Shown here one piece after another: positions 15,461 to 58,843 of a stretch of DNA of 59,818 bases; the stretch's first letter is position 1; every line of letters begins with the position of its first letter. The notes below the pieces were generated by a model. It was not told the origin of the DNA, did no database searches, and saw only the letters and a program-made list of their open reading frames with translations. The position numbers and the translations under genes are program-made. The stretch is from Candidatus Aenigmatarchaeota archaeon. Its GTDB lineage: Archaea > Aenigmatarchaeota > Aenigmatarchaeia > GW2011-AR5. The stretch covers positions 1 through 59,818 of the forward strand of contig JACPAH010000002.1 of assembly GCA_016180925.1 (NCBI GenBank), read 5' to 3'.

Positions 15461-15496
15461 GAATATAACAATGGATTTCAGGTTTTAATAATTATA

Positions 15497-15640
15497 GTGA
15501 AACCAGAAAAGAATCCGAACATGAATTCTGGTTTCACATATCTGCAGAAAGCATAGCTTTCTGACATCTCAAAAGACTCTGTCTTTTGCAGATAGTGCAC
15601 AAGGAAAATAATATCTTATTTCTTTCCTTGTAGCACTATA
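15497..15640. repeat. composite hairpin repeat, copy B: GTGAAACCAGAA..TTCTGGTTTCAC, CAGAAAGC-ata-GCTTTCTG, ACATCT, CAAAAGAC-tct-GTCTTTTG, CAGAT, GTGCACAAGGAAA..TTTCCTTGTAGCAC
   Basis: near-identical by eye to 58268-58415 over about 145 nt; differences inside the stems are largely compensated. Confidence 0.75.
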
Positions 15641-21281: not shown

Positions 21282-21369
21282 GGGCTGGTAGATCAACTGG
21301 AAGATCGCTTGCATGGCATATCTTGCGAGCCAAGGCAAGAGGCTACGGGTTCGAGTCCCGTCCAGTCCA
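21282..21369 (+). tRNA. tRNA-Ala(GGC) with an intron of about 15 nt (21319-21333) in the anticodon loop
   Basis: manual cloverleaf: acceptor GGGCTGG/CCAGTCC with G3:U70, D arm GATC-AACTGGAA-GATC, anticodon stem CTTGC/GCAAG enclosing 22 nt, variable AGGCT, T arm ACGGG-TTCGAGT-CCCGT, discriminator A; CCA not encoded. Confidence 0.8.
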
Positions 21370-21370
21370 T

Positions 21371-21420
21371 AAGCCCCTTTTCTTTTCAAAAAAGAAAAGG
21401 CCCTTGGGTTCAAAAGAAAA
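21371..21420 (+). repeat. trailer module AAGCCCC-[11-bp hairpin]-GGCCCTTGGGTTCAA.., homologous to the 5' part of the tRNA-Cys intron (58491-58540)
   Basis: by-eye alignment; hairpin arms CCTTTTCTTTT/AAAAGAAAAGG here versus CCTTCTTTCTT/AAGAAAGAAGG there, changed on both arms. Confidence 0.6.
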
Positions 21421-21453
21421 TAATATATTTTAAGAGAAGAGGAGGTTGATAAG

Positions 21454-23311: not shown

Positions 23312-23416
23312 TTCTTTATATTGTCTGCAATGGCATTATGAATAAATGGCGCTGAGATGATAAAGATGGCGGCAAATGCTATCTTTAATCATTTTGCCGA
23401 ATCTAATAGAAACATG

Positions 23417-23553
23417 GGCAGGTAGCTTAGCCTGGTAGAGCACCTGACTGATATCGCAGAAAGCGCAGCTTTCTGGGAGCTTGGAAAGAAGGAAACACTG
23501 AAGTTCTTTCCCAATCATCAGGAGGTCGAGAGTTCAAATCTCTTCCTGCCCAT
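23417..23553 (+). tRNA. tRNA-Ile(GAU) with a 63-nt anticodon-loop intron (23455-23517)
   Basis: manual cloverleaf: acceptor GGGCAGG/CCTGCCC, D arm GCTT-AGCCTGGTA-GAGC, anticodon stem CCTGA/TCAGG, loop CTGATA+A, variable AGGTC, T arm GAGAG-TTCAAAT-CTCTT, discriminator A. Confidence 0.85.
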
Positions 23554-42553: not shown

Positions 42554-42684
42554 GCGCCTGTAGTCTAATGGTAGCTTGACGCTAAAGACGTCGTGCCAGT
42601 AAAGGACCACAGCCTTCCAAGCTGTTGACTGTAGCTAATAATTTGGCTCAGGCAGAAATCCGGGTTCGAATCCCGGCGGGCGCA
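42554..42684 (+). tRNA. tRNA-Gly(UCC) interrupted at three positions (about 42574-42585 D loop/stem, 42591-42608 at position 26/27, about 42626-42654 variable region)
   Basis: manual fold: acceptor GCGCCTG/CGGGCGC, GTCT-AATGGTA-[12 nt]-AGAC, G, [18 nt], ACAGC-CTTCCAA-GCTGT, [about 29 nt], GAAAT, CCGGG-TTCGAAT-CCCGG, discriminator A; TATA-like TTTTTATAAGC 24-34 nt upstream. Confidence 0.55.
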
Positions 42685-58253: not shown

Positions 58254-58267
58254 TTTCGCGATTTATA

Positions 58268-58415
58268 GTGAAGCCAGAAAAGAATCCGGACATGAATTCC
58301 GGTTTCACATATGCTCAAAAGCGAAGCTTTTGGCATCTCAAAAGACTCTGTCTTTTGCAGATAGTGCACAAGGAAAATAAATATATTGTTTCTTTCTTTG
58401 CATGACTATAAATGT
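58268..58415. repeat. composite hairpin repeat, copy C; its 3' part carries the TATA-like ACTATAAATG (58405-58414) about 25 nt upstream of tRNA-Cys
   Basis: near-identical by eye to 15497-15640. Confidence 0.75.
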
Positions 58416-58437
58416 ATTCCAGACAATTTCTAAGAGT

Positions 58438-58620
58438 GCTGGCGTGACAGAACGGCCATCTGCAAAGACCGTAGATGTGACCGCCTGCAGAAGCCCCTTC
58501 TTTCTTCAAAAGAAAGAAGGCCCTTGGGTTCAAGAAAGAATAAGCAAAATTATTATGAATATTCTTGAATCCTGCAGAAGCAGCAAGCGGTATAACCCGG
58601 TTCAACTCCGGGCGCCAGCT
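58438..58620 (+). tRNA. tRNA-Cys(GCA) with a 15-nt D-arm insertion (58461-58475) and a 95-nt anticodon-loop intron (58491-58585)
   Basis: manual fold after removing both: acceptor GCTGGCG/CGCCAGC, TG, D stem ACAG/CTGT, loop AACGGCCAT, G26, anticodon stem ACCGC/GCGGT, loop CTGCAG+A, variable ATAA, T arm CCCGG-TTCAACT-CCGGG, discriminator U (Cys identity). Confidence 0.7.
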
Positions 58621-58624
58621 CTCG

Positions 58625-58843
58625 ATGATGACGATAAAAGTAAGGGTAACCACCAATGCAAAAAGGAGCGAGGTTGCCGAAGGAGAAGGCATGATGAGGG
58701 TCAGGCTGAAGGCGAAGCCTGAGGACGGCAGGGCGAATGCCGAGCTGATAAGAGTCCTCTCGGCGCATTTTGGCGTGGAAAAAAATTGCGTGAAGATTCT
58801 GAAAGGGCTGAAGTCGCGCGATAAAACAGTCCTGACAGGATGA
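58625..58843 (+). CDS. DUF167 (YggU-like) protein
   Basis: ..V.V...AK.S.V.......V.L.A.P.DG.AN.ELI..L...FGV.K..V.I..G..SR.K pattern; start moved to MMTIKV just after the tRNA. Confidence 0.7.
   Translation: MMTIKVRVTTNAKRSEVAEGEGMMRVRLKAKPEDGRANAELIRVLSAHFGVEKNCVKILKGLKSRDKTVLTG

Follow-up and report, generated by a model that had tools for sequence, protein, structure and literature searches.

The forward strand of a 59,818-nucleotide (nt) stretch of DNA from a Candidatus Aenigmatarchaeota archaeon (GenBank assembly GCA_016180925.1, contig JACPAH010000002.1, positions 1-59,818), the whole of which we refer to here as the window, carries a tRNA-Cys(GCA) gene at positions 58438-58620 that is divided into three exons by two insertions. 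One insertion lies in the D loop and the other between positions 37 and 38 of the anticodon loop. Features described below are on the forward strand unless noted. The 5′ strand of the acceptor stem, GCTGGCG (58438-58444), pairs with CGCCAGC (58613-58619), and a T discriminator follows at 58620, which makes the span from acceptor to discriminator 183 nt with T58620 included. A T arm of sequence CCCGG-TTCAACT-CCGGG is located just 5′ of the second acceptor strand. The U73 discriminator is the chief cysteine identity element, and this base is kept in all 18 orthologues of the gene that were collected.

In its raw form the locus is passed over by the programs commonly used to find tRNAs. ARAGORN was silent both without introns and with introns of up to 300 nt allowed, and Rfam missed the locus at its gathering threshold and at E ≤ 10 while detecting three other tRNAs in the window. 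An earlier reading of the letters alone, which we call the original prediction, had proposed a tRNA-Cys(GCA) interrupted twice, by a 15-nt insertion in the D arm (58461-58475) and by a 95-nt intron (58491-58585). Excision of both segments yields a 73-nt product that ARAGORN calls tRNA-Cys(GCA), and excision of the long segment alone yields no tRNA call. This result and the orthologues bear out the double interruption, and the acceptor, T arm, and U73 are all located where they had been placed. The boundaries of the shorter insertion required revision, as described below. With the revised boundaries the product is 71 nt in length and is again called tRNA-Cys(GCA) by ARAGORN, and the mature junctions (carets mark junctions and cut sites) read GGCC^AUGUG and CUGCAG^AGCGGU.

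Exon 1 (58438-58457) provides linear positions 1-20, comprising the acceptor 5′ strand, U8 G9, the 5′ strand of the D stem, and the D loop as far as GGCC. It is the same as the corresponding exon of two orthologues, L005 and the intron-less L007 (L numbers designate loci in our collection). Intron 1, a 17-nt insertion in the D loop with the sequence AUCUGCAAAGACCGUAG, occupies 58458-58474, although removal of 58459-58475 or 58460-58476 would yield the same product. Exon 2 (58475-58490) extends from A22 to G37 and includes the 3′ strand of the D stem, G26, the 5′ strand of the anticodon stem, and C32 U33 G34 C35 A36 G37. Intron 2 is 95 nt long and resides at the canonical 37/38 position (58491-58585, or equivalently 58492-58586, both junction bases being A). 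Finally, exon 3 (58586-58620) runs from A38 to the U73 discriminator, and CCA is not encoded.

This exon and intron architecture, its conservation, and its covariation are established by the comparisons presented below. We consider it very probable that the region from 58438 to 58620 is a functional three-exon tRNA-Cys(GCA) gene of a DPANN archaeon that is transcribed, cut by the archaeal tRNA-splicing endonuclease (EndA), and joined by an RtcB-type ligase. Transcription would start from a TATA-like box at about -28, EndA would cleave the precursor at two bulge-helix-bulge-type motifs, and the ligase would then join the exons to give the 71-nt tRNA. We infer these transcription, cleavage, and ligation steps, as well as the need for an endonuclease of relaxed specificity, from the arrangement of the gene.

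Orthologues and intron content

Orthologues were sought by scanning genome contigs with the 3′ exon and metagenome contigs with the 5′ exon. The resulting set holds 18 distinct gene sequences, the window included, from Aenigmatarchaeota-type metagenome-assembled genomes (MAGs) and metagenomes. Named MAGs with an orthologue (L006, L007, L009, L012) are labelled Candidatus Aenigmatarchaeota, and the closest relative, L005 (“uncultured archaeon”), shares both synteny and a DNA identity of 83-86% with the window. The gene of the window itself is present in five independent assemblies, four from Logan and one a JGI contig, and its sequence also occurs, as DNA, in sequencing runs SRR12113420-31. The same exons recur in 18 distinct orthologues, and their introns, where they occur, interrupt shared junctions. 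By this comparison the locus is a gene under selection, and chance does not account for its arrangement.

Intron content among these genes spans zero, one, or two introns at three sites, namely the D loop, position 37/38, and position 59/60 of the T loop. Six genes have no intron (L006, L007, L028, L059, L072, L077), and four have a 37/38 intron only (L025, 51 nt; L050, 82 nt; L063, 88 nt; L055, 239 nt). Another six combine a D-loop intron with one at 37/38, and these are the window and L081 (17 + 95 nt), L005 (28 + 71 nt), L012 and L020 (27 + 43 nt), and L066 (26 + 101 nt). The remaining two have an intron in the T loop, which in L038 is the only one and in L021 accompanies an intron of 84 nt at 37/38. 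When insertions are excised at the conserved junctions, every orthologue (18/18) becomes a 71-nt tRNA-Cys(GCA) as judged by ARAGORN. This program was applied to the spliced sequences in place of Rfam, which passed just two intron-less genes among the orthologue loci; the intron-less L006 and L028 score 54.1 and 51.9 bits, respectively, against the Rfam tRNA model.

The exons have been preserved to a far greater extent than their surroundings. The window and L005 are identical at 71 of 71 exon positions versus 83-86% in the flanks, and their introns differ in length (17 versus 28 nt and 95 versus 71 nt). The mature sequence of L066 is one base different from that of the window, and its introns differ in both length and sequence. 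Across the 18 orthologues, compensatory variants are found in the anticodon stem (ACCGC/GCGGU, CUCGC/GCGAG, CCUGC/GCAGG, GUUGC/GCAAC), the T stem occurs as CCCGG, CCGAG, or GGGAG, and the acceptor stem also changes in a compensatory way. The sole population variant, L081, has a C to U change in the T stem that turns a C-G pair into U.G and thereby retains pairing. A matrix of intron versus exon similarity was also tried as a test of intron transfer, and it was set aside when global identities of this low-complexity sequence proved uninformative.

The two T-loop introns, both at 59/60, are 15 nt (L038) and 50 nt (L021) in length. The predicted precursor fold of L038 places a 4-bp UUCG/CGAA helix and a 3-nt bulge next to the T stem, in the same geometry as at 37/38. 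The T-loop intron of L021 contains a T6 run.

The D-loop intron

Comparison with the orthologues indicates that the D-arm insertion is 17 nt (58458-58474) rather than the 15 nt (58461-58475) of the original prediction. All 12 orthologues without a D-loop intron read GG(C/T)C-ATGT-(A/G) at this site, with no CT. Excision of 17 nt from the window gives GGCC^ATGTG, whereas the 15-nt excision gives GGCCATCTGTG; the corresponding junctions read GGCCAUGUG and GGCCAUCUGUG. Three 17-nt registers are equivalent by sequence alone because AT is repeated at both ends, and the register 58458-58474 was picked by structure, namely by the conserved bulge-helix motif. The mature D arm then has a 3-bp D stem plus G13.A22, in place of the perfect ACAG/CTGT stem of a 73-nt tRNA that had been proposed.

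The central helix of this motif is formed by ACGG (58452-58455), which includes G18 G19, and by CCGU (58469-58472). On the 3′ side of the former strand is a 3-nt bulge, CC^A (58456-58458), and the latter strand leads into AG^A (58473-58475) and then into UGU, the 3′ strand of the D stem. Both cuts therefore fall two bases past a strand of a 4-bp helix, which is the same geometry as at 37/38. Between the two strands lies what remains of an outer helix, UCU-GCAA-AGA (58459-58468), in which 3 bp are capped by a GNRA-type loop following an 11-nt deletion relative to L005.

Five distinct D-loop intron sequences of 17-28 nt are available (window/L081, L005, L012, L020, L066), and their junctions are shared. 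The layout recurs in L005, L012, L020, and L066, where CCG(C/U), close to the 3′ end of the intron, is the pairing partner of ACGG, CC^A follows the 5′ strand, a hairpin fills the rest of the intron, and AG^A with UGU follows the 3′ strand. The outer hairpins of these orthologues have 5-9 bp, with the stems UCUGCA/UGCAGA, UCUGUU/AACAGA, UCUGC/GCAGA, and UGUGAAA/UUUCACA. In the central helix, CG, GC, and GC pairs are invariant in all five sequences, and the one remaining position has A-U in the window and in L066 and A.C in L005, L012, and L020. In an alignment of only these five sequences, 94.7% of cells pair versus 17-37% when the partner strand is slid, four of five pairs in the outer hairpin change on both sides, and the covariation score is reached by none of 500 shuffles. 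The insertion thus displays the 4-bp helix, 3-nt bulge, adjoining helix, and presence/absence polymorphism at the predicted junctions that characterize a non-canonical D-loop intron of the helix-bulge-helix (HBh′) type.

A 15-nt insertion (58461-58475), leaving a 73-nt tRNA whose D arm has a 9-nt loop on a perfect 4-bp ACAG/CUGU stem, is very unlikely in light of these data. ARAGORN does accept its product as tRNA-Cys, and the flanking repeats ATCTG...AGATGTG make the sequence alone ambiguous. However, the junction that it creates has the CT that none of the 12 orthologues without a D-loop intron contains in GGYCATGT(A/G), and a cut of the same type in L066 would give CCATTGTG, which is unlike any intron-less gene. 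Moreover, the conserved ACGG/CCGY helix and its CC^A bulge set the cuts two bases past each strand, as at 37/38.

The intron at position 37/38

The central helix at the second intron pairs C32-C35 (CUGC, 58485-58488) with GCAG (58580-58583), beyond which come the bulge CA^A38 and the 3′ strand of the anticodon stem. At the 5′ site, A36 and G37 precede the cut and the A after it opens a local hairpin, and at the 3′ site CA^A38 forms a 3-nt bulge against the anticodon stem. The position of the intron, the helix between bases 32-35 and the intron 3′ end, and the 3-nt bulge are all those of a canonical 37/38 intron. Homologous introns of 43-239 nt interrupt nine other distinct orthologues at the same junction, and GCAG-NN^A38 is present in nine of these ten distinct, otherwise divergent introns. 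Covariation cannot be seen in the CUGC/GCAG helix because C32-C35 cannot vary. These observations agree with the original prediction, which gave the boundaries of the 95-nt intron (58491-58585) and the 4-bp helix flanked by AG^A and CA^A correctly. L063 is the sole orthologue in which the four nucleotides before the 3′ bulge, GUUG, do not pair with C32-C35.

Two hairpins occupy most of the intron. Hairpin 1 (58491-58525) consists of AAG/CUU, a CCxCC internal loop, and an 11-bp pyrimidine/purine stem, and it forms a local outer helix right after the 5′ cut. Equivalent hairpins beginning at intron base 1 or 2 are found in L005, L012, L050, L063, and L066, and their sequences differ. Hairpin 2 (58526-58573) has an 11-bp stem, GGGUUCAAGAA/UUCUUGAAUCC, with an A+U-rich loop, and a 6-nt linker connects it to GCAG. 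Together the hairpins have a predicted folding energy of -26.4 kcal/mol (z = -4.5), which is matched by none of 200 shuffles. Searches of intron 2 against Rfam returned nothing above chance level, and neither a C/D box RNA nor any other family was recognized.

A direct repeat and a shared module

An 11-nt direct repeat, CCTGCAGAAGC, is present at 58484-58494, where it spans the 5′ splice junction, and again at 58571-58581 inside intron 2. The copies are 100% identical and are 87 nt apart. Neither L005 nor any other orthologue has copy 2, and its counterpart in L021 reads TCCTTC-AGCAG. Since L005 lacks copy 2 and the L021 stretch is different, sequence comparison identifies it as a lineage-specific small duplication in a pre-existing intron and not as a target-site duplication. 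The two copies could also form a 6-bp CUGCAG/CUGCAG pairing, which was rejected as a splicing motif because it leaves no bulge at either cut and is absent from the orthologues; it was treated as a competitor fold.

The first part of the intron is shared with another site in the window. Between 58491-58533 of the intron and 21371-21413 there is 86% identity along 43 nt (nhmmer E = 1.5e-12), and the latter stretch is part of a second copy of the module, hairpin-1/CCCTTGGGTTCAA (21371-21423), that begins 2 nt past the tRNA-Ala gene. Both the repeat and the module behind tRNA-Ala had been reported in the original prediction, and both were recovered here. The module stems differ in a compensatory manner (CCTTCTTTCTT/AAGAAAGAAGG versus CCTTTTCTTTT/AAAAGAAAAGG). 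The conserved part of intron 2 is the pyrimidine/purine hairpin followed by CCCTTGGG, and nhmmer also detects the hairpin-1/CCCTTGGG(TTCAA) module in the Cys introns of L021, L055/L060, and L063. Its presence in these introns indicates that the module is old in the Cys intron. The tRNA-Ala trailer copy has T4CT4 versus T2CT3CT2 in the intron copy, a difference that is compatible with a terminator behind tRNA-Ala and read-through in the intron, but we do not press this point because orthologous introns tolerate T4-T6.

The possibility that the module is a dispersed repeat was considered and discarded, as nhmmer detects it twice in the window and otherwise only in the Cys introns of L021, L055/L060, and L063. 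Within the 239-nt intron at 37/38 of L055/L060, a CCYTTGGGAAAAGAAAG unit that is related to the module of the window is present in three to four tandem-like copies, and the module seems able to multiply inside this intron.

An exact 11-nt direct repeat at the 5′ junction and near the intron 3′ end, together with a similar module at a second site in the window, might bring to mind a small mobile element that entered the anticodon loop and generated a target-site duplication (CCTGCAGAAGC). We give this idea next to no credence. The intron must be older than the repeat because its junction is occupied by a homologous intron, which includes the hairpin module, in orthologues that lack the repeat (L021, L055, L063, L005). 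Furthermore, excision of the stretch between the repeats would leave an intron of only 8 nt, terminal inverted repeats are absent, and the module occurs just twice in the window and is otherwise seen, among the fetched loci, only in Cys introns. The direct repeat is therefore the only one of the expected hallmarks of a transposable element that is present.

Contiguous or split gene

One relative carries an incomplete version of the gene. The L009 locus (about 395-520 of JAGVVX010000064.1) is syntenic on both sides with L012 (about 823-1040), and it is missing tRNA-Cys exon 1 and the D-loop intron. The end of the deletion coincides with the predicted 3′ splice site, TATAATATT^ATGTGCCCGCC. The gene at this locus may have been truncated or may be split, or its incompleteness may be an artefact of assembly.

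That L009 breaks exactly at the splice site also raises the question of whether the long intron of the window is an intron at all. It could instead comprise a trailer that ends in the hairpin-1 module and a promoter and leader beginning with a TATA-like stretch at 58546-58564, in which case the tRNA pieces would be joined in trans. The module is indeed common to a genuine 3′ trailer, an A+T-rich stretch is located about 30-36 nt upstream of exon 3, and orthologous introns have T4-T6 runs just past the 5′ exon. However, the pieces in the window are colinear, adjacent, and on one strand, and there is no long complementary trailer/leader pair such as known split tRNAs have, with complementarity confined to the tRNA stems and the 4-bp helix. 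The longest T run in the window intron is three, and the A+T-rich stretch is not positionally conserved, being absent from L012 and L025. Likewise, no orphan 5′ piece was found among metagenome matches, where the remaining matches to the 5′-exon pattern are G+C-rich coding DNA or unrelated. For a gene laid out in this way, joining in trans is extremely unlikely.

A related proposal is that intron 2 represents a trailer/terminator unit fused to the promoter-leader of pieces that were formerly, or still are in part, separately transcribed, with L009 as a natural intermediate. We regard this history as improbable. If true, it would provide a living series that runs from intron-less through intron-containing to split tRNA-Cys in one DPANN lineage.

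Folding of the precursor

Several features of the precursor weigh against the view that the three-exon gene is spliced efficiently. At 37/38, a strict helix-bulge-helix-bulge-helix (hBHBh′) motif would require an outer helix between the intron 5′ end and the bases just before GCAG, and such a helix is absent in the window, where both copies of GCAG were considered, and in every orthologue. The original prediction had left the outer helix unlocated. No long-range one exists, and the local hairpin at 58491-58525 serves in its place; across the window and the orthologues, 6-190 nt are inserted between the local hairpin and GCAG. The motif is relaxed rather than strict because this hairpin replaces the long-range outer helix, with a helix-bulge-helix on the 3′ side and a bulge plus local helix on the 5′ side. 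In addition, repeat copy 2 can sequester GCAG in a decoy mini-hairpin (CUGC-AGAA-GCAG), which is used in the minimum-energy fold.

Intron 1 is affected in other ways. Its outer helix has been cut to 3 bp by the 11-nt deletion, and the hairpin by itself is predicted to be unstable. Instead of a clean 3-nt bulge, its 3′ cut has around it an internal loop (A14 opposite AG, then G13.A22). When folded alone, the D region has a predicted minimum in which a 7-bp helix, CAUCUGC/GUAGAUG, buries both cut sites. For the whole precursor, the predicted minimum is -72.0 kcal/mol versus -68.3 kcal/mol with both motifs enforced, which places the splice-competent fold 3.7 kcal/mol above the minimum. As modeled, this gap and the competing D-region helix are the weakest point in the argument that intron 1 is spliced efficiently in this organism.

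These same features could be taken as signs of decay. The deletion in the D-loop hairpin and the decoy repeat would then have crippled splicing, and the locus would be a pseudogene or a poorly expressed gene in a cell that is served by another tRNA-Cys. In keeping with this, the outer helix of intron 1 is down to 3 bp, the fold of lowest energy hides the D-loop cut sites and pairs GCAG with the wrong partner, and the syntenic L009 demonstrates that truncation of the gene in a relative is possible. Nevertheless, we think decay unlikely. The exons have stayed identical to those of L005 at 71 of 71 positions while the flanks have fallen to 83-86%, the promoter block is conserved in L005, and the sole population variant keeps its pairing. 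The change of CCGC to CCGU in the window completes the central helix of intron 1 by adding an A15-U pair and at the same time weakens the competing helix by turning a G-C pair into G.U, and thus it looks compensatory. A second tRNA-Cys was not seen within the window. A functional gene with relaxed splicing motifs remains the reading that we prefer.

Neighboring features and other tRNA genes

The TATA-like promoter box, CTATAAAT (58406-58413), is centered about 28 nt upstream of tRNA position 1, a position that suggests promoter function. A block that includes it, ACTATAAATGTATT.CA.ACAATTTCTAA, is kept upstream of the L005 orthologue, where the sequence around it differs.

Immediately downstream of the tRNA is a gene of the DUF167 (YggU-like) family at 58625-58843. 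The PF02594 match covers residues 22-90 of a 92-amino-acid open reading frame (ORF) with E = 4.5e-23, and because the domain begins at residue 22, the true start is the ATG at 58625. In the ORF at 58565-58843, the domain does not extend over the first 20 codons. Pfam found no match for the overlapping ORFs 58402-58722 and 58315-58692 (reverse strand). As had been proposed, then, the ORF 58402-58722 and the 5′ part of 58565-58843 are not coding, and neither is the reverse-strand ORF. A 4-nt spacer without a terminator-like T run separates U73 from the DUF167 ATG, and the arrangement in L005 is the same, so that the two genes are likely co-transcribed. Such a tRNA-mRNA co-transcript would be left with a nearly leaderless DUF167 mRNA upon processing of the tRNA 3′ end.

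The composite repeat that had been noted upstream of the gene is real, as 58263-58380 matches 15492-15611 at 91%. This three-hairpin repeat is present at three or more sites (58263-58380, 15492-15611, and 7-59 on the reverse strand), and copies 1 and 2 run on into a similar TATA-like stretch (ACTATAAATG and ACTATAGATG). Upstream of the L005 tRNA-Cys the first of these hairpins is retained, with changes that are compensatory, and the Logan contigs L001, L003, and L004 terminate inside the repeat, at 58351. The repeat may act as a terminator for the membrane-protein gene upstream of it, or it may be a small RNA or a mobile unit that carries a promoter.

Each of the four tRNA genes of the window (21282-21369, 23416-23552, 42554-42684, 58438-58620) is interrupted by at least one intron, and two of the four have two introns. 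The gene at 42554-42684 is reported as tRNA-Asn(GTT) by ARAGORN with introns allowed, but Rfam alignment and splicing enumeration show it to be tRNA-Gly(UCC). It has two non-canonical insertions of about 30 nt, with approximate boundaries, in the D loop and the variable region. The former is in the same D-loop region as the tRNA-Cys insertion, and inspection by eye suggests a Cys-like motif, with (A)UGG/CCA(G), UA^G, and the hairpin CUUGACG/CGUCGUG. No canonical 4-bp helix in the expected register was found by eye for the Ile or Ala intron of the window.

Comparison with known systems

Genes of this kind are already known, and the tRNA-Cys findings leave the known working of archaeal tRNA introns unchanged. 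Non-canonical positions such as 20/21 and 59/60, multiple introns, and relaxed motifs that are cut by broad-specificity EndA are established in Archaea (PMC4090602). Many disrupted tRNA genes are reported for DPANN lineages, whose incomplete tRNA sets are stated to point to disrupted genes that have gone undetected (PMC5829648). In the literature searched we found no specific description of the tRNA introns of Aenigmatarchaeota.

The standard tRNA finders used here miss the present example, and a genome annotated with ARAGORN and Rfam/Infernal as run here would seem to be without tRNA-Cys. It therefore provides a concrete case of the “missing tRNAs” of DPANN genomes (PMC5829648) and bears on claims of MAG completeness and of auxotrophy. 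In addition, a single tRNA with zero, one, or two introns at three sites in a single lineage is a compact natural data set on intron gain, intron loss, and the minimal structure that an intron requires.

The tRNA-Trp intron of Haloferax is 105 nt in length and carries a C/D box guide RNA. Intron 2 resembles it in being roughly 100 nt long, highly structured, and located at 37/38, and differs in having no C/D box or Rfam family match. Split and tri-split tRNAs of Nanoarchaeum equitans and Caldivirga maquilingensis have break points at intron positions that include 37/38 and use the same endonuclease and ligase (PMC4090602). Unlike these, the pieces in the window are contiguous and colinear, without a long complementary trailer/leader pair.

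Close parallels are the multi-intron tRNAs of Thermoproteales, other Crenarchaeota, and Nanoarchaeota, which likewise combine a 37/38 intron with a second, non-canonical intron (PMC4090602). In the tRNA introns of Crenarchaeota and Nanoarchaeota, as in those of the window, cuts are set by a 4-bp helix and its flanking bulges, and relaxed motifs are common (PMC4090602). The tRNA-Cys gene differs from these systems in that its host is a mesophile-like DPANN archaeon and the outer helix at 37/38 takes the form of a local hairpin, which is conserved and is separated from the central helix by the remainder of the intron.

Relaxed motifs require a broad-specificity endonuclease (PMC5829648, PMC3239211), and we predict that the EndA of this lineage should accept them. 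Such enzymes occur in DPANN archaea, as the ε2 type of ARMAN-2 (PMC3239211) and as L3-loop enzymes (PMC5829648), in small genomes that, like the genome of the window, have many intron-containing tRNAs, with non-canonical and multiple introns among them. A link between the organism of the window and a particular one of these EndA types is putative.

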